Assembly (NCBI GenBank): GCA_051745145.1
Contig: JBNJDT010000005.1
Location: 1,096-65,095, forward strand
Source: Elusimicrobiota bacterium
GTDB lineage: Bacteria; CG03; SLGR01; JAGXOG01
Reading direction: 5' to 3'
Length of the DNA stretch: 64,000 nt
Positions 18,242 through 49,627 of the stretch are shown here, in pieces. The notes beneath the pieces are model-generated. The model saw only the letters and a list, made by a program, of their open reading frames with translations, was not told the origin of the DNA and did no database searches. The position numbers and the translations under genes are program-made. The number at the start of each line of letters is the position of its first letter. Position 1 is the first letter of the stretch.

Positions 18242-18319
18242 GACCCCATAGTCTAGCTTGGTCCAGGACACTAGGTTTTCATCCTAGCAACAGGGGTTCA
18301 AATCCCCTTGGGGTCACCA
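18242..18319 (+). tRNA. tRNA-Glu (anticodon UUC), CCA encoded
   Basis: Cloverleaf read by eye: acceptor GACCCCA/TGGGGTC, D-arm GTCTAGCTTGGTCCAGGAC, anticodon stem-loop CTAGG-TTTTCAT-CCTAG, T-arm AGGGG-TTCAAAT-CCCCT, then A-CCA. Confidence 0.85.
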
Positions 18320-19414: not shown

Positions 19415-19491
19415 GGGCGGATAGCTCAGCTGGCTAGAGCGCTGCCCTTACAAGGCAGAGGTCACAGGTTCAATCCCTGTTCCGCCCACCA
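19415..19491 (+). tRNA. tRNA-Val (anticodon UAC), CCA encoded
   Basis: Acceptor GGGCGGA/TCCGCCC, D-arm GCTCAGCTGGCTAGAGC, anticodon stem-loop CTGCC-CTTACAA-GGCAG, T-arm ACAGG-TTCAATC-CCTGT, then A-CCA. Confidence 0.85.
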
Positions 19492-27353: not shown

Positions 27354-27431
27354 GGCGGCATCGTCTAGCCAGGGCCAGGACACAGCCCTCTCAAGGCTGC
27401 GACACGGGTTCAAATCCCGTTGCCGCTACCA
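27354..27431 (+). tRNA. tRNA-Glu (anticodon CUC), CCA encoded
   Basis: Acceptor GGCGGCA/TGCCGCT (pair 1-72 is a G-U wobble), D-arm GTCTAGCCAGGGCCAGGAC, anticodon stem-loop CAGCC-CTCTCAA-GGCTG, T-arm ACGGG-TTCAAAT-CCCGT, then A-CCA. Confidence 0.8.
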
Positions 27432-37148: not shown

Positions 37149-38499
37149 AAAAAGAATGAGGGCTCCTATCAAAAAAAGTCTAATAGTATTATATATTTTA
37201 ATGTTAGCTGCACCAGTAGTCCGGTCCTCCCAATTATCTCTCTATTCTTTAGATTCCCGGGTGATGGCTTTGGGGGGAGCCGGAGCTGCCCTAGAAAATT
37301 TAAACTCTTCTTTAAGTGTTAACCCCGGGGAGATGGCTCGAAGAAATCACTATAAATACAGCTTATTTTATAAAAATATAGATCGTGAAACGCATATCGG
37401 ATATTCAGAATATATCCTTCCCCTTGGATCCTGGGTATCTATTGGAGCGGGTACTTCTGTTAACTTTACGGACATGGATAATTATCTCCAGATTCACAGG
37501 TTTGGTCTGGGGTTTGATATTTTAAAAGTTTTATCATTCGGAGTTTCTCCTAATATTAAAGTAAAAGAGACTTCTCAGGGGTCCGGGGAAGTAGCCGGAA
37601 TAGACGGCGGCATATTATTATCACCTCTGGAGTGGTTAAATATAGGGGTCTCTGCTAAAAATATAAATTATCCCGAAATGGAGTTTGAAAATGTGAGTTC
37701 TACGGTAACTTTTCCGGGAAAAATTAAGGGGGGGATCAATATCTTTTATTCGGATTATTTTAATATTGTAGCGGATGTGTTAATAGAAGATTTTAGGGAA
37801 GAATACGGTGAATATAGTTTAAGAAAAGTTTTTGGGATAGAAATATTTCCGTTTAAGGGGTTGGCTTTAAGAGGGGGAATGGTAAAAGACGAGTGGCAGG
37901 TCGGTCTGGGAATTAATTCTCCGGCTGTGGATTTGTCTTATTCGTATAATAATAATGAGATTTTTGAACATTCCCTGCAGTATACCAGAAAATTTGGGAT
38001 TCCTCCATCAATTCAAGAAAAAGAAATACAGAAAAAAGAAGAAAAATTAAGTAAAGATAAACTTTACCTTAAAGCTCTTACCTATTATAATAATAATGAA
38101 ATTGCCAGGGCCCGGGCTAAAAAAGAGGAATATGTCCAGGAGTACGGCGCTGATGAACGCATCAATGAGCTAAAGCAGGATATAAATCGCTGGCTGGCAG
38201 AGAATAGAAAAGAAAAACTGGAACAGGCGGAAAAGCTTGAAAGCAAGGTGCTGGAATTTTATTACCAGGGCCGGATTGACGATGCCAGAAAGGAGCTTGA
38301 GAATATAAAGGTTCTGGCCCCTGAGTACGGACCTATTAAGTACTTAGAACATCTTCTCCGAGCGCAGGAATTACTTGAAGAAGGGGAATACAGCGCCGCC
38401 GAGCAGGAATTAGTTGAAGCATTAAAATTAAATCCGGACAGTGATCATGTTCCGGCTTTACATAGAAGATTACAGGAGGTATTAAAATTACGTGAATAG
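37138..38499 (+). CDS. Secreted hypothetical protein: putative beta-rich outer-membrane domain plus a C-terminal helical/TPR-like region
   Basis: Signal peptide, then an N-terminal LGGAGAAL motif and alternating hydrophobic beta-like segments. The C-terminal ~150 aa are helical with TPR-like character. Confidence 0.45.
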   Translation: MKVKKRMRAPIKKSLIVLYILMLAAPVVRSSQLSLYSLDSRVMALGGAGAALENLNSSLSVNPGEMARRNHYKYSLFYKNIDRETHIGYSEYILPLGSWVSIGAGTSVNFTDMDNYLQIHRFGLGFDILKVLSFGVSPNIKVKETSQGSGEVAGIDGGILLSPLEWLNIGVSAKNINYPEMEFENVSSTVTFPGKIKGGINIFYSDYFNIVADVLIEDFREEYGEYSLRKVFGIEIFPFKGLALRGGMVKDEWQVGLGINSPAVDLSYSYNNNEIFEHSLQYTRKFGIPPSIQEKEIQKKEEKLSKDKLYLKALTYYNNNEIARARAKKEEYVQEYGADERINELKQDINRWLAENRKEKLEQAEKLESKVLEFYYQGRIDDARKELENIKVLAPEYGPIKYLEHLLRAQELLEEGEYSAAEQELVEALKLNPDSDHVPALHRRLQEVLKLRE

Positions 38500-39925
38500 C
38501 ATACAAAAACATTTATATCTTATTTTAGTTTTATTATTTTTAGTTTCACCTTTAAATTTAGTTTTTGCCCAGGACGACGGTTTAATGGATAGGGCAATTA
38601 AGAATTATCTGGGAGGGGATTACCAGGGAGCCATCCAGGGCTTTGAACGAATTCTTGAAAATGAAGATAATCCCGAGGCCCGCCGCCTGCTTTTTAAGTC
38701 GATAGTTGAAGAGGGAAAGAATAATTTTGAGAATGAAAACTTTGAAAAGGCAAAAGAATATTTTCTGCGGGCTGAAGAATTATATCCCGATGATGAAGAG
38801 GTCAAAAATTATTTAGAAGAATTAGAAGAGGGAGAAGATAAAGAACCGGAAGAAAAACAGGAGTCATCCGGTTCCCCGGCCGATTCCAATCTGGAGGAAT
38901 TAATTGTAGAATTGAGAAACCAGATCTCCCGGGAAAGAGCGGCAAAGAATAGGTATAGGAATACAATTAATACTCTTTCCACTCAAAAAAATAGTTTGGA
39001 AGAATCTTTAAATACAACAAAAGAGAAACTTGCCCAGACCGAATCGCAACTAAAATCTATGGCGGAAAATCTTGAAGAAGACGATATGGCTCTAGGCTGG
39101 ATAGGTTATGGAATCGGGGGGGTAGCCTTAATTATCGGGGTAGTTCTTATAATAATACTCAGGAAAGTCTATTTTACATCTAATGAGAGTATTTATCAGC
39201 TTGACGAGCTTGAAGATCGCATCTTAGGCCGGCTCGAAGAGGCCGAAGAGGAATCCGAAGAACTTGAAGAAAGAGTTTCCAGAAGTATAAACCAGATGGT
39301 TAAGGGACAACAAGAAGCTGTAAAACAGATTTCCCATTCTGCGGCAGGTAAGACCCAGGAGGATATAGAACAGATAAAAAATGAATTAGAAAATCAATTT
39401 TCCAGGCAGCAGGAAAAGCTGCTTGAGCTTCTCAATATGCAGGCCAGAGCCCTATCCTCTGAACAGACAGAAAAGGTGGAACTTAAAAGCGGGAGGGTAA
39501 TAACTGATGTAAATCCTCATGTAAGGGCCAGAGCGGATGGAGTGGAGATGATCCCCAAGACCGTAAGTGATCCCAATGTCGCCCAGAAAATGCTGAAACC
39601 GTATTTGTCGGATTCCAATAATCGGGTAAGAGCTAATGCCTGTGTAGCTATACATCAATACAATCCCGAGCTGGCTGTAGAGACTTTAGAAAAGATGGCC
39701 GACAGTCCCAATAAATGGATGAGACTTTCAGCCGCCTGGGCTTTAGGAGAAATAGCAACTCCCAAGGTTACCCATATATTAAGGAAACTGCTTGATGATG
39801 TGGATGATAGGGTTAAAGAAAAAGCCATGGAAGCATTTGAGAATATGGCGGAGGTCAAACAGGAGGCCGGTTCTGAAATAAGAAAAATGATAGATCGTAT
39901 TCAGAAAGAACAGGAAGAAGAATGA
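38492..39925 (+). CDS. Hypothetical envelope protein: signal peptide, TPR, coiled coil, one TM, and C-terminal HEAT-like repeats
   Basis: Signal peptide, a TPR-like N-terminus, a coiled coil, a TM segment (WIGYGIGGVALIIGVVLIIIL), and C-terminal HEAT/PBS-lyase-like repeats (VRANACVAI..., MRLSAAWALGEI..., DRVKEKAMEAF). Confidence 0.5.
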   Translation: MNSIQKHLYLILVLLFLVSPLNLVFAQDDGLMDRAIKNYLGGDYQGAIQGFERILENEDNPEARRLLFKSIVEEGKNNFENENFEKAKEYFLRAEELYPDDEEVKNYLEELEEGEDKEPEEKQESSGSPADSNLEELIVELRNQISRERAAKNRYRNTINTLSTQKNSLEESLNTTKEKLAQTESQLKSMAENLEEDDMALGWIGYGIGGVALIIGVVLIIILRKVYFTSNESIYQLDELEDRILGRLEEAEEESEELEERVSRSINQMVKGQQEAVKQISHSAAGKTQEDIEQIKNELENQFSRQQEKLLELLNMQARALSSEQTEKVELKSGRVITDVNPHVRARADGVEMIPKTVSDPNVAQKMLKPYLSDSNNRVRANACVAIHQYNPELAVETLEKMADSPNKWMRLSAAWALGEIATPKVTHILRKLLDDVDDRVKEKAMEAFENMAEVKQEAGSEIRKMIDRIQKEQEEE

Positions 39926-40824
39926 AAAAAGTTGACCTCCATTTACATTCTACTCTATCGGACGGGAAACTCACTCCGGTAGAATTAATAAAACAGGCAA
40001 AAAAGAAAAATCTCAAGGCAGTCGCTATTACCGATCACGATATAACCGAAGGGATAGAATCGGCAATTAGATACGGAGCCAAGACCGGTATAGAAGTAAT
40101 ACCCGGAATTGAACTGTCCTGCGAATATAAATCCACTGAAGTTCATTTACTGGGATATTTTATAAACTGGGAAAATAGATGGTTTCAGAGCAAATTAAAA
40201 GTTCTGCAAAAGGCCAGGGAAAGAAGGGCCTATCATATATTAAATAAGCTTCAGAATATAGGGGTAAATATTGATGAGCAGATGCTGTTTGCCCAGGCGG
40301 GGAGCGGGGCCATTGGAAGAATGCACTTTGCCCGCTGTCTGGTAAAGATAGGGGAGGTGAAAACCGTAAGAGAAGCATTCAGAGAATATCTGGGAAAGAA
40401 TTGCCCGGCCTTTGTAAGAAAATTGCGTTTAACTCCTGTCGAAGCTCTTAATATGATTCACCGGGTGGCGGGCATCTCCGTATTGGCCCACCCTTCCTTT
40501 GGCGTCAGTCACAAAAATTTTATTCGCCGTCTGGCCCGGCTGGGGCTTTCGGGAATAGAAATTTATCATCCCCACGTATCGGAGGAAGAACAGAAAAAAT
40601 TTAAAGCAACAGCTTATGAATTGGGGTTATTTGTCACTGGAGGTTCTGATTCTCACGGAATGAGACCGGAAGAAAATCCGGTAGGTAGTATGGAAGTAGA
40701 ATACAGTGCAGTTGAAAATATGAAAAAAGCTTTGCAAAAGGTTGAGTTAAAAAATCGTATTATATTAAATTTGCAGAGCCAAAAATCAACTTTTAAAACC
40801 CGGGAGGTGAAAAAGAGTGTTTAA
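39922..40824 (+). CDS. PHP-family phosphoesterase (TrpH/YciV-like)
   Basis: HLHSTLSDG, AITDHD and GGSDSHG metal-binding motifs. 300 aa. Confidence 0.8.
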   Translation: MKKVDLHLHSTLSDGKLTPVELIKQAKKKNLKAVAITDHDITEGIESAIRYGAKTGIEVIPGIELSCEYKSTEVHLLGYFINWENRWFQSKLKVLQKARERRAYHILNKLQNIGVNIDEQMLFAQAGSGAIGRMHFARCLVKIGEVKTVREAFREYLGKNCPAFVRKLRLTPVEALNMIHRVAGISVLAHPSFGVSHKNFIRRLARLGLSGIEIYHPHVSEEEQKKFKATAYELGLFVTGGSDSHGMRPEENPVGSMEVEYSAVENMKKALQKVELKNRIILNLQSQKSTFKTREVKKSV

Positions 40825-41385
40825 AGTAAAAGAATGCATGATAAAAGAGGTAATGACCGCCAAAAGAGGAACTCCTCTCAATGAGATAATAAAGTTTTTT
40901 AAGGAAAAGCACGTTCATGTTTTGCCGGTAGTAGACAAAGAAGACCGGCTTGTGGGAGCGGTCTCTTTAAATGAAATTACAACTGTATTCGAACCTCATT
41001 CCGCCAAGATGAATAAACTTATGGAGGGAATACCTTTTGTCGATTCAGTTGAAGATAATGAACTCGATCTTGATTATATTACTCCGGAGATGGGTATTCT
41101 TGTAATAGCGGATGAAATAAAGACGGATAGATATCTGTCGGTTCGGCCCGATGATTCAATTTCTAAGGCCTATTCGGTTATGAAGAAAAATAAGACAAAA
41201 TTTTTGATGGTCACCGATGAGCAGGGCCGCTTAAAGGGAGTGCTGGGCATGTTTGATATAGTGTATTTTCTGTTTAAAAATAAAGGTGTTATTCAGTGAC
41301 ACTAAATGTCCTGTTCTCTATAGGAATAATATTTTTAACCGGGGTAATCGGGGCTACTTTAATAAAATATTTAAAATTGCCAAAT
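40815..41385 (+). repeat. Upstream copy of a ~570-bp near-identical direct repeat (Shine-Dalgarno + whole CBS gene + first ~27 codons of the antiporter)
   Basis: Matches 42882..43452 with a single mismatch (GACACTAAAT vs GACTCTAAAT). Identity breaks down after AATAAAATA. Confidence 0.85.
40817..41299 (+). CDS. CBS-domain pair protein (copy 1)
   Basis: Two CBS motifs, 160 aa. GTG start with a GGGAGG Shine-Dalgarno. Overlaps the downstream antiporter. Confidence 0.8.
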   Translation: MFKVKECMIKEVMTAKRGTPLNEIIKFFKEKHVHVLPVVDKEDRLVGAVSLNEITTVFEPHSAKMNKLMEGIPFVDSVEDNELDLDYITPEMGILVIADEIKTDRYLSVRPDDSISKAYSVMKKNKTKFLMVTDEQGRLKGVLGMFDIVYFLFKNKGVIQ

Positions 41386-42483
41386 ATTACTTCTTATATT
41401 TTTGTGGGTATTCTGATAGGGCCTGAATTGTTGGATTTAATATCTCCGGCTCTTATGAATTCCACTAAGTTTGTTACCAATGTGGCTTTAAGTTTCATAG
41501 CTTTCGGACTGGGCCAAAATTTTTCAATTAAAAAACTGCAATCTATAGGGAGTAATATAGTTGTCTTAACTATTGGTCAGATGGTAGTTACATTTTTATT
41601 GGTAGGGGGAAGTTTATATATGTTGCCGGATATTTCCTTTCATATGGCTATTCTGGCGGGAGCTATAGCTACCGCCTCGGCTCCAATAGCGGTGATAACA
41701 ATAATAAGAGAATACCGTTCTAAAGGGAATTTTACGGACAACTTATTGGGAGTGGTTGCCTTCGCCGACGGAGGGTCAATTATATTGTTTGCCGTAATTT
41801 TGGCAGTGGCCCGGGGGATAACTCAAACGGGCGGCAGTCTGGGGAGTTTGGTGGTTTCCGGCTTTATGGAAGCTCTGGTAGAAATTGGTGGTGCGATTTT
41901 AGTGGGAGTTATTATAGGAGCCATATTTTCTAAAACTCCCAAGTACGTGGATGATTCAATTGATATATTATTGTATATTCTCGGTTTTGTTCTGCTTACT
42001 TCCGGGGTAGCCTTACATTTTGGTTTTTCGGCACTTCTGGCAAATATGACTTTGGGGATATATCTAGAAAATAGAGGGGAATCAGAGTTTAGATTTTTTG
42101 ATGCGTTAAAAGATTTGGAAACTCCGTTCTATCTTTTATTCTTTGTACTGGCCGGTGCTAAACTGGAACTGGAAATGCTTAAATATTTACCGGCTGCGGC
42201 AACTGTATATATTATTACCCGGATTGGGGGGAAGGTGTTTGGGTCCTATCTGGGAGCAGTAGTGGCATCTGCAAAGAAAGAAGTAAAAAAATATTTGGGG
42301 ATGGCTCTTATTCCCCAGGCCGGTGTGGCTATAGGTTTTGCTCTTATTGTTCAGTCTGTATTTCAAAATACAGGAGGAGAAAAGATATTTTTATTAATAA
42401 TTTCCACTACGGTTGTAAATGAAATAATAGGGCCAGTATTTACTAAAATAGCTCTTCAAAAATCCGGAGAAATTAGAAGTTGA
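41296..42483 (+). CDS. CPA2-family cation/H+ antiporter (copy 1)
   Basis: About 12 TM segments with the Na+/H+-exchanger-family fold. GTG start. Confidence 0.85.
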   Translation: MTLNVLFSIGIIFLTGVIGATLIKYLKLPNITSYIFVGILIGPELLDLISPALMNSTKFVTNVALSFIAFGLGQNFSIKKLQSIGSNIVVLTIGQMVVTFLLVGGSLYMLPDISFHMAILAGAIATASAPIAVITIIREYRSKGNFTDNLLGVVAFADGGSIILFAVILAVARGITQTGGSLGSLVVSGFMEALVEIGGAILVGVIIGAIFSKTPKYVDDSIDILLYILGFVLLTSGVALHFGFSALLANMTLGIYLENRGESEFRFFDALKDLETPFYLLFFVLAGAKLELEMLKYLPAAATVYIITRIGGKVFGSYLGAVVASAKKEVKKYLGMALIPQAGVAIGFALIVQSVFQNTGGEKIFLLIISTTVVNEIIGPVFTKIALQKSGEIRS

Positions 42484-42628
42484 TTTTTTGAATAGCTGTT
42501 ATAATTTTATATAATACTATAAAATATAAGGAATTGAATTTTTGCTCAATTCAAAAGCAGCAGGTGCCGCTGAAAAAGTTAGAGTAACTATCCCTTATAT
42601 ATATAAATTTTGAGGTAATAAAAGTTTA

Positions 42629-42660
42629 GCCCGCTTGAAAAAAAATCAAGCGGTTTTTTT
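42629..42660 (+). terminator. Rho-independent terminator after antiporter copy 1
   Basis: GCCCGCTTGA-AAAAAAA-TCAAGCGG hairpin followed by a T7 run. Confidence 0.7.
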
Positions 42661-42664
42661 ACGG

Positions 42665-42693
42665 TTGACAGGTTTTGGAAAAACAATCATATT
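42665..42693 (+). promoter_or_regulatory. Candidate promoter for CBS/antiporter copy 2
   Basis: TTGACA, a 17-nt spacer, then CATATT. Lies immediately after the terminator and ~190 nt upstream of the copy-2 start. Confidence 0.3.
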
Positions 42694-42881
42694 CTGTAGT
42701 TATTTTAGGTAAAAAGGGATAAATATAAAATTTTTATTTAGAGGATTCAAAATTCTGCTTAGAACTTTAAAAACAAATTTAGTAAAGTGTAATACAGGGT
42801 GAAAATATAAAGTTAATTTTATGAAAGCCTAATTTGATAAATCCATAAATTAGGAAACGCATTAGCCGGGAGGCAAAATTA

Positions 42882-43452
42882 GAGTGTTTAAAGTAAAAGA
42901 ATGCATGATAAAAGAGGTAATGACCGCCAAAAGAGGAACTCCTCTCAATGAGATAATAAAGTTTTTTAAGGAAAAGCACGTTCATGTTTTGCCGGTAGTA
43001 GACAAAGAAGACCGGCTTGTGGGAGCGGTCTCTTTAAATGAAATTACAACTGTATTCGAACCTCATTCCGCCAAGATGAATAAACTTATGGAGGGAATAC
43101 CTTTTGTCGATTCAGTTGAAGATAATGAACTCGATCTTGATTATATTACTCCGGAGATGGGTATTCTTGTAATAGCGGATGAAATAAAGACGGATAGATA
43201 TCTGTCGGTTCGGCCCGATGATTCAATTTCTAAGGCCTATTCGGTTATGAAGAAAAATAAGACAAAATTTTTGATGGTCACCGATGAGCAGGGCCGCTTA
43301 AAGGGAGTGCTGGGCATGTTTGATATAGTGTATTTTCTGTTTAAAAATAAAGGTGTTATTCAGTGACTCTAAATGTCCTGTTCTCTATAGGAATAATATT
43401 TTTAACCGGGGTAATCGGGGCTACTTTAATAAAATACCTCAAGATGCCCAAT
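42882..43452 (+). repeat. Downstream copy of the ~570-bp near-identical direct repeat
   Basis: See 40815..41385. Confidence 0.85.
42884..43366 (+). CDS. CBS-domain pair protein (copy 2; 100% amino-acid identity to copy 1)
   Basis: The 160-aa translation is identical to that of 40817..41299. Confidence 0.8.
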   Translation: MFKVKECMIKEVMTAKRGTPLNEIIKFFKEKHVHVLPVVDKEDRLVGAVSLNEITTVFEPHSAKMNKLMEGIPFVDSVEDNELDLDYITPEMGILVIADEIKTDRYLSVRPDDSISKAYSVMKKNKTKFLMVTDEQGRLKGVLGMFDIVYFLFKNKGVIQ

Positions 43453-44550
43453 ATAACCTCTTATCTTCTGGTGGGTATATTAATCGGTCCCGAAATTTTT
43501 AATCTTATTCCCGGTGAGCTTTTGAATTCGGCCCACTTGTTTACAAATATAGCTTTGAGTTTTATAGCTTTTGATTTAGGACAGAACTTCACCCTTAAAA
43601 AATTGAGGAATATTGGCCGGGAAGTAGCCTGGATTACAGTGGCTCAGATTATTTTTTCATTTCTTCTGGTGGGGTTGGGTATGTATTTTATAGTAGGAAC
43701 GGAAATGCATATTGCCATATTACTGGGAGCGATAGCTACGGCAACTGCCCCGATAGCTGTTATAATGGTAATAAGGGAGTATAAAGCCAGGGGGAATTTT
43801 ACCGATACACTGCTGGGGGTAGTGGCTCTAGATGATGGCGGTGGGATAATAATGTTTGCTGTTTTTCTGGCAGTGGCCCGGGGTATGACTATGGTCGGGG
43901 AAACTCTGGGAACTTTGATAACTACCGGTTTTATTGAAGCTTCTGTTGAGATAGGCGGAGCGGTATTACTGGGAATTATTTTAGGAGTATTGTTTGCTAA
44001 TTTCCCTAAATTTATCGACAGTTCTATAAGTATACTTATATATATACTGGGATTTGTTTTAATTAACACCGGGATATCACAGCATTTTGGTTTTTCTGTA
44101 CTGCTTGCCAATATGTCTATGGGGATATATTTGGCCAATCAGTCGGGAACTGAATACAGATTTTTTGAAACTTTAAATGAGATAGAGCCACCTTTTTATT
44201 TGTTGTTTTTTGTTCTGGCCGGTGCTGAACTTCAGTTTGGGATGCTTAAACATCTTCCTCTGGCAGCGGGAGTATATTTTATTACCCGTTTTACGGGAAA
44301 AATACTCGGCTCCTATCTGGGAGCAGTAGCGGTGTCGGCGAGAGATGAAGTAAAAAAATACCTGGGAATGGCTCTAGCTCCTCAGGCCGGTGTGGCCATA
44401 GGTTTTGCACTGATAGTGAAGAGTACTTTTAAAGGGATAGGTGGAGAAGAAGTGTTTTTTATAATAATTGCCACTACAATTTTAAATGAAATTTTCGGCC
44501 CGGTATTTACAAAAATAGCTCTTCAAAAGTCCGGAGAAACTAAAGTTTAA
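43363..44550 (+). CDS. CPA2-family cation/H+ antiporter (copy 2; diverged paralog, ~65% identical to copy 1)
   Basis: The first 27 aa match copy 1 (one substitution). The remainder is diverged throughout but clearly homologous. Confidence 0.85.
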   Translation: MTLNVLFSIGIIFLTGVIGATLIKYLKMPNITSYLLVGILIGPEIFNLIPGELLNSAHLFTNIALSFIAFDLGQNFTLKKLRNIGREVAWITVAQIIFSFLLVGLGMYFIVGTEMHIAILLGAIATATAPIAVIMVIREYKARGNFTDTLLGVVALDDGGGIIMFAVFLAVARGMTMVGETLGTLITTGFIEASVEIGGAVLLGIILGVLFANFPKFIDSSISILIYILGFVLINTGISQHFGFSVLLANMSMGIYLANQSGTEYRFFETLNEIEPPFYLLFFVLAGAELQFGMLKHLPLAAGVYFITRFTGKILGSYLGAVAVSARDEVKKYLGMALAPQAGVAIGFALIVKSTFKGIGGEEVFFIIIATTILNEIFGPVFTKIALQKSGETKV

Positions 44551-44596
44551 TTCTTGAATACCGGTTTAGAATTTGATATAAGGAAATCATAAGATA

Positions 44597-44700
44597 AAGG
44601 CAGACAGGGGAAGTCCTGTGAAAGTCAGGCGCTGCCCCGCAACTGTGAAAGTCAGAGTACCTGTTGCCTATATTTGGACTTCGAGGGAAGGACGGGCGAA
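44597..44700 (+). promoter_or_regulatory. Cobalamin (B12) riboswitch aptamer
   Basis: AGGGGAAGTCCTGTGAAAGTCAGGCGCTGCCCCGCAACTGTGAAAGTCAGAGTACCTGTTGCC, which carries the hallmark GCUGCCCC-GCAACUGU segment and a B12-box-like AGUCAGAGUACCUG. An enclosing GGCAGACAGG/CCTGTTGCC helix is present. Sits upstream of a btuFCD-btuB operon. Confidence 0.6.
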
Positions 44701-44733
44701 AACTTTTAAATATAAGTAAAGTTATAAGTCTAT

Positions 44734-44764
44734 CCCGCTTGAAGATAACAAAGCGGGTTTTTTT
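44734..44764 (+). terminator. Intrinsic terminator hairpin that probably serves as the riboswitch expression platform
   Basis: CCCGCTT-GAAGATAACA-AAGCGGG followed by a T7 run that ends directly at the btuF ATG. Confidence 0.6.
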
Positions 44765-45619
44765 ATGTTTGACAAATTAAAGAAAGTTATTTTAACCATA
44801 TTAATTTTTATATTATCCGGGTGTAGTTTTTCGGATGGTTCAAAGAGCAAGCCGGGAGAAACTTACCTTTCTCTATCCCCGGCTACGACGGAGATTATAT
44901 ATGCTTTGGGGGCTCAGAAAAATCTGGTGGGAGTAACCGATTTTTGCAATTATCCGGCGGAAGCTAAGGAGAAAGAATCAGTGGGAAATTTTATGAATCC
45001 TTCCTTAGAAAAGATTTTTTCCCTCAACCCGGATATAGTATTTGATGCCGGTCTGCCTCAAAAAAAACTTATAGACAAATTAAAGAAAAGAGGCATAAAA
45101 GTTATTACTGTCGAGCCGGAAAACATTGAACAGTTAAAAGAGAGTATTAAACGTATTGGTAAAATAACAAAAAGAAAAGATAAGAGTAGGAAAGTAATTT
45201 CAAAAATCCACTGGCAGCTAAAAGAAGTTACCCAAAAAGCAGCAAATGTTAACAGAAAAAAGGTTTATGTAGAAATATCGGCAAATCCGATGATGACTGC
45301 GGGGAGAAAAAGTTTTATAACTGAACTTATCGATATAGCCGGAGGAATAAATGTCGCCGGGGATGTAGCAAAGAATTATTTTACTGCCGGCTTTGAATTT
45401 CTAGTAGAAAAACAGCCGGATGTTATATTACTGCTTTCTCAAAATCCAGATAAGAGAAAAAAAGAGCTGGAACGAATTTTAGATAATAAAGGCCGTCATT
45501 CCAAAAAACCAGAAATATTTCCTGTCTCAGTTGAAGAAAAAGATCTATTTTTAAGGCCGGGACCCCGGATCGGCCGGGGAGCGCGGAGAATGTTTGAGCT
45601 GATTCACCGTGAACAGTAA
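44765..45619 (+). CDS. btuF: Periplasmic cobalamin-binding lipoprotein of a B12 ABC importer (BtuF-like)
   Basis: Lipoprotein signal peptide with lipobox (ILSGC). TroA/BtuF-like N-terminus LSLSPATTEIIYALGAQKNLVGVTDFCNYP. Confidence 0.75.
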   Translation: MFDKLKKVILTILIFILSGCSFSDGSKSKPGETYLSLSPATTEIIYALGAQKNLVGVTDFCNYPAEAKEKESVGNFMNPSLEKIFSLNPDIVFDAGLPQKKLIDKLKKRGIKVITVEPENIEQLKESIKRIGKITKRKDKSRKVISKIHWQLKEVTQKAANVNRKKVYVEISANPMMTAGRKSFITELIDIAGGINVAGDVAKNYFTAGFEFLVEKQPDVILLLSQNPDKRKKELERILDNKGRHSKKPEIFPVSVEEKDLFLRPGPRIGRGARRMFELIHREQ

Positions 45620-45688
45620 ATTTTTCGGTCTGCCGGTGGTAAGTATTAAGGTAATGATACCGATAGAAATTTTCACGGGAACCGTTTA

Positions 45689-46618
45689 ATGAAAAGACAT
45701 TTATTATTTTTTAGCTTATTTACCGCCGGTGCTGTAATAATAGCTTTAAATCTGGGCAGCTCCGGAGTAACTTTATTTAACATGACCGGCAGTAACGTAA
45801 TTCTCAATTTGAGAATTCCCCGTATAATTATGGGGCTGGTGGTGGGGTCGGGGCTTTCCGTGGCCGGAGTGATACTGCAGGCACTGCTTAAAAATCCTCT
45901 TGCCGAACCTTATATTGTGGGAACTTCCTCGGGAGCGGCTCTGGGAGCAGCAATAGTATCTTTTATGGGGATAGCATATTTTCGGGCTCCGGCGGCTTTG
46001 GCGGCCGGACTTATTACTACTTTTACAGTATACAGTATAGCAAAGAAAACGGGGCGGCCAGGTCCCAATACTATAATCTTAGCCGGGGTTATTGTGGGCT
46101 CTTTTTTATCGGCAGTCACTCTTATGTTTATGGTTTTAGATCAGAAAACCGCTTACGATATACTGTTTTTCCTTACCGGAAATCTCAGTTTTGAGAGTAC
46201 GGGACGCATCCTGTTTACGTCTGTTTTAATGTTGTCCGGTATAGGGATAGCTTTTTTTTACGGGACCAGACTGGATATTCTATCACTTGAAGATACCGAA
46301 TCCGTAATGCTGGGAGTGGAAGTTGAAAAGGACCGCCGGAATTTATTTATAGTGGCAAATATAATTGTAGCTGTCTCGGTATATGCAAGCGGGATAATAG
46401 GGTTTGTGGGACTCATAGTACCCCATACCGTAAGACTTATGACGGGAACAAAACACAGAAAACTCATATTGAATTCTGCGGTGGCCGGAGCCGGTTTTCT
46501 TGTGCTTTGCGACGGTTTGGCCCGGTCAGTTATTGCTCCCGTGGAGTTACCGGTCGGGGTAATTACCGCGTTTACCGGCGGCCCATTTTTTCTGTATCTT
46601 ATGGTAAGTAAAAGATGA
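45689..46618 (+). CDS. btuC: FecCD-family permease (BtuC-like)
   Basis: 309-aa polytopic protein of the FecCD/BtuC family (RIPRIIMGLVVGSGLSVAGVILQ). Confidence 0.85.
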   Translation: MKRHLLFFSLFTAGAVIIALNLGSSGVTLFNMTGSNVILNLRIPRIIMGLVVGSGLSVAGVILQALLKNPLAEPYIVGTSSGAALGAAIVSFMGIAYFRAPAALAAGLITTFTVYSIAKKTGRPGPNTIILAGVIVGSFLSAVTLMFMVLDQKTAYDILFFLTGNLSFESTGRILFTSVLMLSGIGIAFFYGTRLDILSLEDTESVMLGVEVEKDRRNLFIVANIIVAVSVYASGIIGFVGLIVPHTVRLMTGTKHRKLILNSAVAGAGFLVLCDGLARSVIAPVELPVGVITAFTGGPFFLYLMVSKR

Positions 46619-47376
46619 GTGTTATAAAACTGAAAAATGTTAGTGCCGGTTATAAACAGGGGTTTAAAATGAAAAATTTAAATCTTAAAATGGAAAAAGA
46701 GAATTTTACCGGGATTATCGGCCCCAACGGCAGCGGGAAAACAACCCTTCTGAAAATTATTACCGGTATATTAAAAAATGAAACCGGACAGGTAAAAGTA
46801 GACGGACGCAATATAAAAAACTTAAAACCAAAACAGAAGAGCCGGATAATGGCCTATGTTCCTTCCGAGAGCCTGATTAATTTTAATTATACGGTTCTTG
46901 ATATTGTTATTTTTGGACGGTATCCTTACACGGGGCGGCTGGACAGGTATAAAAAAACCGATAAGAAAAAAGCATTTCGGGCCCTGGAAATCTGCGGCGT
47001 AGCCAGTTTGACTACAAGATTGTTTAATACTTTATCTTCCGGTGAAAAGAAAAAAGTGTTACTGGCCCGGGCTCTGTGCCAAAAAACGGATATTTTATTG
47101 CTGGATGAACCGGCGGCCCATCTGGATATCCATCATGTGAAAGAAATATTTAATTTACTTACTGAACTGTCTGAGAACGGAATAAAGATTATAGCTGTAA
47201 TTCACGATATAAATTTAGCCTCCGTTTACTGCGATGATGTTATAGTATTAAAGCAGGGAGAAATAAAGTATAAAGGGGAAAAAAAAGCTGTAGTAAATAG
47301 TGATTTTTTAAGTAATATTTACGGGGGAGAAGTAGAAGTTAAGAATATTGAAGGAAATAGTTTTATTATCCCTTAA
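46615..47376 (+). CDS. btuD: ABC ATPase (BtuD/FecE-like)
   Basis: GPNGSGKTT, LSSGEKKKVLLARAL, LLLDEPAAHLD, AVIHDIN: all catalytic motifs canonical. Confidence 0.85.
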   Translation: MSVIKLKNVSAGYKQGFKMKNLNLKMEKENFTGIIGPNGSGKTTLLKIITGILKNETGQVKVDGRNIKNLKPKQKSRIMAYVPSESLINFNYTVLDIVIFGRYPYTGRLDRYKKTDKKKAFRALEICGVASLTTRLFNTLSSGEKKKVLLARALCQKTDILLLDEPAAHLDIHHVKEIFNLLTELSENGIKIIAVIHDINLASVYCDDVIVLKQGEIKYKGEKKAVVNSDFLSNIYGGEVEVKNIEGNSFIIP

Positions 47377-47394
47377 AAAAGAAAGGAGAAACAA

Positions 47395-49353
47395 TTGAAA
47401 AAAATTTTATTTTTTATATTAGTTATCGGTATAGTATTAGTTAAGACGGCTCCGGGGGCCGAATATATAGGAGATATGGGGACCATGGTGGTAACTCCGA
47501 TAGGAAGCAAAATTAATTCCGCCTATATCCCCGCCAATATAGAAGTAATAGACCGGGACCGGATCAGTAGTTCGGGTAATGAATCCGTGGCCGATGTTTT
47601 AAGAGATGTAAACGGACTGCGGGTTAGCGACTGGACCGGAAACGGCACTAAAATGTCGGTGGATATAAGCGGTTTTGGGGAGACAGCCAGCCAGAATGTA
47701 CTGATTCTGGTGGATGGCATGAGATTGGACAGCAATGATTTAAGCGGGACAGACTGGCAGCAGGTGACTGCGGATCAGATTGAAAGGGTAGAAATAATAA
47801 AGGGGCCGGGCACCGTAATATACGGTGACAACGCTTCCGGTGGAGTAATAAATATTATTACAGAATCCCGGATTCCCCGGACAAAAAAAATGGTTGAGAT
47901 GTGGGCCACTTCTTATAACGGACTGGGGGGAAAGGCGAAACTCTCTGGAAGTCAAAACAGTTTTAGTTATTCTTTAGCTGGGTCCGGATCAGAAAATCCG
48001 GGTTACCGCCAGAACAGCGAGATAGGAGTAAGAAGCGTATCCGGTGATTTTGGGTATCAGATTGCCGGTCTGCCTTTAAAACTGGATATTAACTCCGGCT
48101 ATAAAAAAATCAGTTACGGCTTGCCGGGAAGTCTGTCGGAGTCGGAACTTGAATCGGGTATCAATAGATATGATTCCACTACCCCGGAAGATAAAGAAGA
48201 AGATAAAAATAGTTATGTTCGTGGTAAATTATCTTTCAGACCGGTAAAAAATTTAAATATTGAACTAAACTCTACCTATAAGACAAAAAAGTCTACAACT
48301 GTGTGGGTATCTATGGGTAGTTCCACCGAATACAAAAATTATAGAAACATTATGGGACTTAAGATAATTAAAAATAAACTTCCCATGGCCCCGGCTGCAA
48401 GAATAACAGCCGGGTTTGACTATGACCGTAATAAAATGAATACTGAAAAAATAGGATTCACTAATTCTATAAGTACTATTCAGGTTGTTTCTGTGGCACC
48501 TTATATACATACGGAAATTCCCGCATCGGAGAAATTAATTTTTTCCGGCGGAATAAGATATCACAATTCCGGTTATAATTTTGCCCACCGGACAGGGGGA
48601 GTAACTACAGAGGAAGAATATGAAAGAGAGGCATTGGCTTATTCAGCGGGGTTAAGTTATCTTTACCGAAAGATGGCTAAAACGTATATAAATTACAGTC
48701 AGAATTTCAGGTTTCCCAAAACCGGAGAATTTTTCAGTATATTTTCAGGTGAGCTTAATGAAGACCTTAAAGCCCAGAAAAGTGATGATATAACTGCCGG
48801 TTTGCGGATATTTCCCTTCTCTGATTTTACCGCGGGACTTCATTACCGGCATTCTTACATTGAGGATGAATTATTTTACAATCCCGAAACGGGGGCTAAT
48901 GAAAATATAGAAGAGACATTTCGGAGAATATATGAGTTGAAATTGAGCTATAAATTAGGGGACCGGCTTTCTTTAAGTGGCGGAATAAATCACCTGGTTA
49001 CCGAAATTAAAAGCGGTGAATATTCCGGGAATAAAATTCCGGGAGTTCCCCATAATAAATTTAATTTTTCCGCTAAAGGACAGCCTGTGGATAATTTAAC
49101 TTTACGGGCAAGTATAACCGGTACAGATGATAGATATTTTATAAGTGATTTTAAAAATGAAGCATCTAAACTTCCGGGATATGTCCGGACTGATCTTACG
49201 GCAGTTTATTCTTTAAGTCCCATGAGTATATCCCTGGGGATTAATAATTTGTTTAATGAAAAATATTCCGAACACGGAACTTATTATGGAGAAAAAAATT
49301 ATTATCCGTCCCCGGTAAGGAATTACACTCTTGAAGTTGGAATAACATACTAA
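47395..49353 (+). CDS. btuB: TonB-dependent outer-membrane receptor (BtuB-like)
   Basis: Signal peptide, TonB-box-like TMVVTP, plug domain (IEVIDRDRI, GLRVSDWTG) and a C-terminal barrel ending …EVGITY. Shares the riboswitch-controlled operon. Confidence 0.8.
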   Translation: MKKILFFILVIGIVLVKTAPGAEYIGDMGTMVVTPIGSKINSAYIPANIEVIDRDRISSSGNESVADVLRDVNGLRVSDWTGNGTKMSVDISGFGETASQNVLILVDGMRLDSNDLSGTDWQQVTADQIERVEIIKGPGTVIYGDNASGGVINIITESRIPRTKKMVEMWATSYNGLGGKAKLSGSQNSFSYSLAGSGSENPGYRQNSEIGVRSVSGDFGYQIAGLPLKLDINSGYKKISYGLPGSLSESELESGINRYDSTTPEDKEEDKNSYVRGKLSFRPVKNLNIELNSTYKTKKSTTVWVSMGSSTEYKNYRNIMGLKIIKNKLPMAPAARITAGFDYDRNKMNTEKIGFTNSISTIQVVSVAPYIHTEIPASEKLIFSGGIRYHNSGYNFAHRTGGVTTEEEYEREALAYSAGLSYLYRKMAKTYINYSQNFRFPKTGEFFSIFSGELNEDLKAQKSDDITAGLRIFPFSDFTAGLHYRHSYIEDELFYNPETGANENIEETFRRIYELKLSYKLGDRLSLSGGINHLVTEIKSGEYSGNKIPGVPHNKFNFSAKGQPVDNLTLRASITGTDDRYFISDFKNEASKLPGYVRTDLTAVYSLSPMSISLGINNLFNEKYSEHGTYYGEKNYYPSPVRNYTLEVGITY

Positions 49354-49549: not shown

Positions 49550-49627
49550 GGGGTGGTAGTTCAGATTGGTAAGAACGCCGGCCTGTCAAGCCGGAGGCCG
49601 CGAGTTCAAGTCTCGTCCACCCCGCCA
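49550..49627 (+). tRNA. tRNA-Asp (anticodon GUC), CCA encoded
   Basis: Acceptor GGGGTGG/CCACCCC, D-arm GTTCAGATTGGTAAGAAC, anticodon stem-loop CCGGC-CTGTCAA-GCCGG, T-arm GCGAG-TTCAAGT-CTCGT, then G-CCA. Confidence 0.85.

Follow-up and report, generated by a model that had tools for sequence, protein, structure and literature searches.

Why should two adjacent copies of the same two-gene unit be identical at one end and strongly diverged at the other? The question is raised by a locus within a window of 64,000 nucleotides (nt), the whole stretch of DNA that was analysed, taken from the metagenome-assembled genome (MAG) of an uncultured Elusimicrobiota bacterium (GenBank assembly GCA_051745145.1, contig JBNJDT010000005.1). 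A unit consisting of a gene for a CBS-domain protein (CBS) and a gene of the Na+/H+-exchanger family (ANT) occurs here twice in tandem, with a spacing of 2067 nt. We consider it likely, judging from sequence comparisons, that an ancient tandem duplication was followed by divergence of the antiporters, that some lineages then lost one of the copies, and that a very recent gene conversion took place across the CBS gene.

An Identical Tract within a Diverged Tandem Duplication

All features discussed here are located on the + strand. In the first unit, CBS1 (40817-41299; MGM0441186.1) encodes a stand-alone CBS-pair protein of 160 amino acids and is followed by ANT1 (41296-42483; MGM0441187.1), the gene for a NapA-like cation/proton antiporter of 395 amino acids. 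In the second unit, CBS2 (42884-43366; MGM0441188.1), whose 160-residue product is the same as that of CBS1, precedes ANT2 (43363-44550; MGM0441189.1), which again encodes a NapA-like antiporter of 395 amino acids. All four genes begin with GTG, and in both units the start codon of the antiporter gene and the stop codon of the CBS gene share a 4-nt GTGA overlap.

When the two units are compared in register at an offset of 2067, positions 40814-41369 of copy 1 and 42881-43436 of copy 2, the 556-nt segments that we regard as the gene-conversion tract, differ only by a synonymous mismatch at 41301. The CBS gene lies within this tract, together with the initial 74 nt of the antiporter gene. A preliminary description of this DNA, made from its letters alone, had already recognised a tandem CBS/antiporter duplication with a mosaic pattern of identity, and the open reading frames, the Pfam assignments, the in-register comparison and permutation analysis all bear this out. 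Its single mismatch is confirmed while its length of about 570 bp shrinks to 556 nt; likewise, the first 27 antiporter residues are indeed the same in both copies, but nucleotide identity stops in codon 25 rather than extending over 27 codons. The abrupt collapse of identity behind the tract is just as it had been described: in 50-nt windows past position 41370 identity amounts to 50-82%, with differences that are dense at once and with no indels in the coding part. Over their full length, ANT1 and ANT2 share 68.9% of their nucleotides and 65.8% of their amino acids, in line with the earlier estimate of about 65% for the antiporter proteins. Identity plotted along the two units thus has a sharp, non-uniform profile, which is not that of uniform divergence.

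The longest stretch in which no more than one mismatch occurs measures 553 nt; the maximum attained in 10,000 permutations of the mismatches was 76 nt, so that chance does not account for the pattern. Third-codon positions are 100% identical within the tract and 30-63% identical outside of it. Calculated by the method of Nei and Gojobori, the number of synonymous substitutions per site (dS) is 0 between CBS1 and CBS2 and 1.56 between the antiporter bodies, whose synonymous sites are saturated and whose number of nonsynonymous substitutions per site (dN) is 0.265. Pairs of CBS orthologs have dS values of 1.05-1.67. While CBS1 and CBS2 show no differences at all, comparisons with orthologs over these 553 nt yield 96-114 differences, and that with the CBS gene of the incompletely recovered locus L037 (see below) yields 80 in 521 nt; had no conversion taken place, the CBS copies of the window would therefore be expected to differ at about 80-114 sites, as the orthologs do. 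Purifying selection as the source of the CBS identity is ruled out by the dS value of 0.

A second, weaker rise in identity is visible at the 3' end of the antiporter genes. Third-position identity between ANT1 and ANT2 climbs there to 0.60 and 0.57 (42257-42436 versus 44324-44503), compared with only 0.37 and 0.27 in the same windows between the antiporter genes of the related loci L001 and L003. This rise may have been left behind by an earlier conversion.

The Duplicated Unit and Its Decayed Riboswitch

On its right side, the duplication is bounded by a gene for a BtuF-like periplasmic binding protein (44765-45619; PF01497), the first gene of a riboswitch-controlled vitamin B12 uptake cluster that continues with FecCD, an ABC ATPase and a TonB-dependent receptor. 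The leader of btuF begins with a putative promoter element (44554-44582; TTGAAT...GATATAAG) that is conserved in L001 and L003, and it contains a complete AdoCbl-II (cobalamin) riboswitch aptamer (44591-44670; RF01689), which scores 56.1 bits against a gathering score of 36.5. Rfam searches also detect this riboswitch at the L001, L002 and L003 loci. A hairpin followed by seven T residues (44734-44764; CCCGCTT...AAGCGGG; -11.1 kcal/mol) abuts the ATG of btuF and is for this reason read as the terminator of the riboswitch expression platform and not as a dedicated antiporter terminator. The preliminary description had spoken of a terminator after the antiporter; the element is instead that of the riboswitch leader of btuF, functional behind copy 2 and a relic behind copy 1. 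Within the region comprising the riboswitch and the B12 cluster (44591-49353), the T-run leads straight into the btuF start codon, and no Shine-Dalgarno sequence is visible there.

Alignment with the flank behind ANT2 and with the corresponding flanks of L001 and L003 reveals that the flank behind ANT1 is a decayed duplicate of the entire btuF leader. A relic of the promoter is present at 42488-42515 (TTGAAT-N16-TATAAT), and both of its hexamers are kept in L037. It is followed by a pseudo-riboswitch (42520-42625), recognised by alignment, in which the B12-box core is lost (GCCCCGCAACTGT has become GGTGCCGCTGAAA) and about 33 nt are deleted. Next comes a retained terminator hairpin with a run of seven T residues (42631-42660; -11.9 kcal/mol), which is homologous to the hairpin at 44734-44764, is 78% conserved with L037, and probably now ends the transcript of copy 1. 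The last element is a remnant of the 5' end of btuF (42661-42690), whose ATG has turned into ACG (42661-42663) and which marks the right end of the original duplicated unit. The 3' flanks had been described as recognisably homologous yet diverged, and they are indeed 71% identical (42619-42681 versus 44723-44785, at an offset of 2104). Since the flank of copy 1 is homologous to promoter, aptamer, terminator and btuF start alike, the original unit must have run about 20-30 nt into btuF.

The flank of copy 2 thus behaves as a typical member of the AdoCbl-II family, exceeding the gathering score and leading into a terminator and the B12-uptake genes, an arrangement shared with L001 and L003, whereas the flank of copy 1 is decayed and keeps only the terminator and the promoter hexamers. 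No Rfam riboswitch match was obtained for the relic even at E<=10, the only matches being terminator-driven ones at chance level; this search thus gives no sign of a working riboswitch or of another known RNA at this site. The decayed aptamer is 50% identical between the window and L037, a value at or below the 62% identity of CBS third positions, and thus shows no sign of the constraint that reuse of the decayed leader for a new role would leave. Across the whole junction (42484-42883 versus positions 52-425 of L037), identity is 60% and thus roughly neutral when set against the same 62%. The elements of the junction that rise above this background are the relic terminator (78%), the Shine-Dalgarno block of copy 2 (87%) and both relic promoter hexamers. 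It may therefore be that copy 2 now makes use of the relic promoter, or that copy 1 makes use of the terminator. A promoter scan was not enriched relative to shuffled sequences (16 found, 13.3 expected), so that the promoter assignments rest on the cross-species conservation of the hexamers. As the locus illustrates, a duplication can sweep a riboswitch along with it, and the riboswitch can then decay to a pseudo-riboswitch while its terminator is reused.

On the left side, copy 1 adjoins a gene for a PHP-domain phosphoesterase (39922-40824; PF02811), whose final 8 nt overlap the start of CBS1, an overlap that translationally links the first unit to an upstream HEAT-PHP operon. The left border of the identical tract lies where the alignable sequence ends, and its right border lies 74 nt inside the antiporter gene. 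Diverged homology reaches upstream past the tract, with a 1-nt indel, to the CCGGGAGG Shine-Dalgarno sequences at 40800 and 42866. The Shine-Dalgarno region of copy 1 (40800-40813; CCGGGAGGTGAAAAAG) is the diverged counterpart, outside the identical tract, of that of copy 2 (42866-42880; CCGGGAGGCAAAATTA), in which the block TAGCCGGGAGGCAAAATTA is identical in L037. Hence, the duplication itself stands as it had been proposed, although its limits do not: they were placed at the CBS Shine-Dalgarno sequence and at the terminator, and homology extends to the CCGGGAGG element upstream and about 20-30 nt into btuF downstream (ATG at 44765, ACG at 42661). Between the btuF remnant and the second unit lies a spacer of about 175 nt (42691-42865) that is homologous between the window and L037. 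A local alignment of this region (42682-42880) with the 3' end of the PHP gene did not score above shuffled sequences, since 40, 111 and 62 of 300 shuffles reached the same level.

Related Loci and the Age of the Duplication

The preliminary description had left it to a comparison of related genomes whether one or two copies are the rule. Loci related to that of the window were found in other Elusimicrobiota and in MAGs labelled as Sumerlaeota and Deltaproteobacteria, and both arrangements occur among its closest relatives. L001, L002 and L004, which represent one species, possess a single module in the order HEAT-PHP-CBS-ANT-AdoCbl-II riboswitch-BtuF-FecCD-ABC-TonB; the CBS protein of this species is 87.5% identical to that of the window, and its antiporter is 76% identical to ANT1 and 68% to ANT2 at the amino acid level. 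L003 likewise has a single module (PHP-CBS-ANT-riboswitch-BtuF), with a CBS protein of 92% amino acid identity and an antiporter that is 90% identical to ANT2 and 65% to ANT1. L037, a contig of 946 nt from an independent Logan assembly of a different sample (SRR34348043), contains the tandem junction only and aligns end to end with positions 42433-43404 of the window. In order, it carries an ANT1-like C-terminus, the decayed leader with its terminator stem, the btuF relic, the homologous spacer, TAGCCGGGAGGCAAAATTA, a CBS gene and the 5' end of an antiporter gene. The CBS gene of L037, which is located at the copy-2 position, is 85% identical to the CBS gene of the window at the nucleotide level and 92.5% at the amino acid level. 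Because an independent assembly shares this junction, the tandem is very probably real and older than the split between the window and L037 species. The depth of that split can be gauged from the CBS third positions, which are 62% identical between the two; for the comparable pair of window and L003, CBS dS is about 1.

A neighbour-joining tree of 22 antiporters unites ANT1 with the L001 protein and ANT2 with the L003 protein, and makes these two clades sisters, each of the three groupings receiving 100% bootstrap support; the next outgroup is L005b. ANT1 and ANT2 accordingly separated before the lineages of the window, L001 and L003 did. The flanking proteins place the three species at near-equal distances (54-65% identity among the flanking genes), with the window slightly nearer to L003. 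Antiporter dN is 0.25 between the two types, 0.06 between ANT2 and the L003 protein, and 0.16 between ANT1 and the L001 protein, whereas CBS dN is 0.05-0.07 across all species pairs, without a deep split like that of the antiporters. This combination of flat CBS distances and deeply split antiporters fits a history in which the antiporters are paralogs and their CBS partners were homogenised at a time when both units existed side by side. Both antiporter genes are intact and under purifying selection, with dN/dS ratios against their orthologs of about 0.10 for ANT1 and 0.07 for ANT2.

An independent CBS-ANT-CBS-ANT tandem in L018 (coordinates 1-2949) serves as a control. Its antiporters are sisters (100% bootstrap support) that share 66% of their amino acids, its CBS copies are 48% identical over the 52 amino acids present, and the two units have no 20-mers in common; hence, a homogenised CBS gene is not the automatic outcome of a tandem arrangement. 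In L005 (5422-8252), a single CBS gene precedes two antiporter genes, whose products belong to different clades and share 46% of their amino acids. Taken together, L018 and L005 indicate that multiplication of the module recurs. In L020 (2-1354), a CBS gene is directly followed by BtuF, with no antiporter in between.

Probable Gene Conversion and Alternative Explanations

The history that we favour would have started with a tandem duplication of the coupled module that began at the CBS ribosome-binding site, ended some 20-30 nt within btuF, and carried along the btuF promoter, the B12 riboswitch and the terminator. Behind copy 1 the riboswitch would have been useless and would have decayed, with only its terminator hairpin being retained. 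The antiporters would then have diverged to 66% amino acid identity, the first Asp of the Asp-Asp motif in ANT1 being replaced by Ala. Related lineages would have kept a single unit: recombination between the CBS repeats could have deleted ANT1 to give the layout of L003, and recombination between the leader repeats could have deleted CBS2-ANT2 to give that of L001. Finally, one recent, RecA-type non-reciprocal exchange would have copied 556 nt from one unit to the other and erased the divergence there. The exchange would have been confined to those parts that were still similar enough for recombination, namely the CBS gene and the region of the antiporter N-terminus, both of which are conserved; since CBS is the best-conserved part of the unit, enough identity for recombination may have persisted there. 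As the CBS gene of L037 already occupies the copy-2 position, the event would have been a replacement, i.e., a conversion, and not a re-duplication. The preliminary description had also favoured a recent conversion of the 5' segment of an old duplication, and the contrast between dS values of 0 and about 1.56, together with a junction in L037 that already includes the copy-2 CBS gene, supports that proposal.

Gene conversion is known to homogenise bacterial paralogs within a chromosome, the tufA/tufB genes and the rRNA operons being examples of such concerted evolution. The present tract resembles these cases in being bounded, in including synonymous sites, and in having sharp borders and diverged flanks. 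It differs in that homogenisation is limited to the first quarter, at the 5' end, of a unit of two genes (the whole partner gene plus 74 nt of the transporter gene), while the transporter bodies are near saturation, and in that the exchange is deduced from sequence. At the CBS-antiporter locus, a known evolutionary process has acted on a transporter module that is uncharacterised but looks ordinary, and current understanding is not overturned. The locus nevertheless offers a clean natural case in which gene conversion has affected part of a tandem duplicate, with a contrast in age that can be dated against orthologs, and it might be used for teaching or for calibrating the detection of conversion in MAGs.

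Several points weigh against this history. The close clade is known from four lineages, two of which are represented by short contigs (L003, 2.6 kb; L037, 0.9 kb), so that duplication and reciprocal loss are read from few taxa. As regards the left end of the original unit, the spacer at 42691-42865 is not traceable to the 3' end of the PHP gene. The clues to the direction of the conversion conflict with each other: the left edge of copy 2 ('AGAGTGTTTAA') resembles the copy-1 form that is constrained by the PHP gene, where L037 has AAGGTGTTGAA, whereas Lys5 of the window CBS protein matches the copy-2 gene of L037 and not the PHP-linked genes of L001 and L003; the antiporter N-terminus does not help either. 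Moreover, the exact 100% identity could be slightly inflated by the consensus of the assembler.

Among the alternatives to gene conversion in a tandem of local origin, the one that survives best assumes that lateral transfer brought in the second unit as a CBS-antiporter-leader fragment of a syntenic relative, inserted beside the resident module through homologous or illegitimate recombination, that ANT1 and ANT2 are consequently xenologs, diverged orthologs rather than paralogs formed in place, and that the CBS gene was converted later. Each relative with a long enough contig holds only one antiporter type, as this scenario would have it, and the near-equidistant CBS genes (dN of 0.05-0.07), the deeply split antiporter types (dN of 0.25) and the merely 54-65% identical flanking genes of the three species can be read in the same way. 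We nevertheless regard it as unlikely. The junction holds relics of the locus's own downstream leader and of the btuF start, as expected for a tandem formed in situ, and it was already common to two species; a single repeat-mediated deletion from the tandem yields either single-copy layout; and the ratio of antiporter to CBS dN, 3.9 for L001 versus L003 and 1.2 for ANT2 versus L003, misfits simple orthology. A second possibility is that the CBS identity is an artefact of assembly, in which two differing copies were merged into one short-read path that was then used twice. The window is a contig of a MAG, and graph assemblers can merge near-identical repeats; copies diverged by about 15-20% of their nucleotides would not merge, however, so that no more than a few percent of divergence could be concealed by an artefact, and a conversion would have to be invoked all the same. 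With the tandem junction independently present in L037, the mismatch at 41301 resolved within the tract, and a sharp 3' border immediately followed by dense differences, we consider an artefact highly improbable. The other reading offered by the preliminary description, a recent partial re-duplication that put a fresh CBS gene and antiporter 5' end ahead of a CBS-less ANT2, finds a precedent in the one-CBS, two-antiporter layout of L005, but is hardly credible in view of the L037 CBS gene at the copy-2 position behind the same copy-2-specific Shine-Dalgarno block, the diverged homology that continues upstream of the tract (CCGGGAGG and a 1-nt indel), and the unchanged reading frame and 395-residue length of the antiporter.

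The Antiporters and Their Ion-Binding Motif

ANT1 and ANT2 each match the Na_H_Exchanger family (PF00999) with 129 bits over profile positions 5-373 of 375. The best match of ANT2 among solved structures is the NapA protein of Thermus thermophilus (E = 1e-13, residues 8-384). The LDDGG motif of ANT2 aligns with Asp156/Asp157 of NapA, whereas the corresponding motif of ANT1 is FADGG, with an Ala at the position of Asp156; the transmembrane Lys equivalent to Lys305 of NapA (GK(V/I)) is present in both. In the numbering of the cation/proton antiporter (CPA) motif, Asp-Asp at positions 6-7 is present in ANT2 and absent from ANT1 and from its L001 ortholog. Both antiporters have a Val, and thus no Glu, at position 5 four residues ahead of the motif, and a Lys at position 8. 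The absence of Glu from position 5 and Lys rather than Arg at position 8 are the features of the published motif rule (Masrati et al. 2018, PMC6181914). The NCBIfam model for CPA2 (TIGR00932) gave 51-54 bits, below its cut-off of 238, and that for CPA1 (TIGR00831) was similarly sub-threshold, so that the assignment to CPA2 rests on the motif and the NapA match.

The second Asp of the motif is essential for ion binding, and in electrogenic exchangers the first Asp pairs with the Lys (PMC11150392, PMC6181914). Asp-Asp characterises the electrogenic NhaA/NapA type (PMC6181914), the electroneutral KefC carries Gln-Asp, and other CPA2 clades can have Asn or Gln at position 6 (PMC11150392, PMC6181914). 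Asp-Asp is found in ANT2, L003, L005b and most outgroups, and Ala-Asp in ANT1 and L001; the occurrence of Asp-Asp in the outgroups marks the Ala-Asp form as derived and stable. From these motifs, ANT1 and ANT2 probably differ in coupling stoichiometry or in selectivity. ANT2 resembles NapA (PDB 4BWZ, 5BZ2, 5BZ3), an electrogenic CPA2 Na+/H+ antiporter, in its Asp-Asp motif and its transmembrane Lys; overall identity to NapA is low, ANT1 departs from it by the Ala at the position of Asp156, and no coupled CBS protein is known for NapA. A natural pair of Asp-Asp and Ala-Asp paralogs would be well suited to studying the role of the first Asp of the CPA motif. Further variants exist among the related loci, with Ser-Asp in L008 and L010, and a Glu at the position of the transmembrane Lys in L018a and L032.

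The CBS Protein as a Putative Partner of the Antiporter

The CBS protein contains two stretches that match PF00571 (79 bits) and form one CBS pair; its matches in the PDB are the CBS-pair proteins MJ1225 and MJ0100 and the CBS domain of MgtE. In nearly all of the approximately 29 related loci with enough downstream sequence, the CBS gene lies directly 5' of the antiporter gene, either overlapping it or separated from it by a few tens of nucleotides. It is plausible that the two proteins constitute a functional pair in which the CBS protein is a ligand-sensing regulatory subunit, a role suggested by conserved adjacency and translational coupling; this coupling at the gene level points to a predicted CBS-antiporter complex. 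In a search of the literature, no stand-alone CBS protein came up that had been described as the partner of a CPA2 antiporter. The locus therewith flags a widespread and uncharacterised CBS-plus-antiporter gene pair.

Pairs of a transporter and a regulator are familiar among such exchangers. KhtT/KhtU, a CPA2 exchanger with a cytoplasmic nucleotide-sensing regulator, is a further example besides KefC with KefF. The likeness to KefC, which has a fused RCK domain, and KefF (PMC11150392) lies in the pairing of a membrane CPA module with a soluble ligand-binding regulator. Unlike in the KefC/KefF and KhtT/KhtU systems, the putative partner at this locus is a stand-alone CBS pair and not an RCK/KTN domain, and no RCK domain was detected in the antiporters of the window by Pfam search.

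The CBS protein is conserved to 88-92% of its amino acids across species, compared with 54-76% for its neighbours. The homogenisation might be no neutral accident: repeated conversion could be under selection if both antiporters, with their canonical Asp-Asp and derived Ala-Asp motifs, have to respond to a single CBS sensor sequence; we deem this proposal rather doubtful. If it were true, the stand-alone CBS protein and the NapA-like antiporter coupled to it would represent a class of CPA2 transporters, so far undescribed, whose regulation relies on gating by nucleotides or metabolites, and the high conservation of the CBS protein would be the outcome of long-term concerted evolution between the two units.

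Neighbouring Genes

The HEAT-PHP-CBS-ANT gene order is also found in L001 and in L004-L014. Within the clade, a HEAT/TPR coiled-coil membrane protein and the PHP phosphoesterase are always encoded 5' of the CBS-antiporter module (38492-40824 in the window). The top NCBIfam matches of the PHP protein are a 3',5'-nucleoside bisphosphate phosphatase and RNase RNM, both below their cut-offs, and it is possible that the PHP protein provides a link of nucleotide metabolism to the CBS sensor. Four tRNA genes are also located on the + strand of the window, at 18242-18316, 19415-19488, 27354-27428 and 49550-49624; the last of these lies just 3' of the gene for the TonB-dependent receptor, as in L001.

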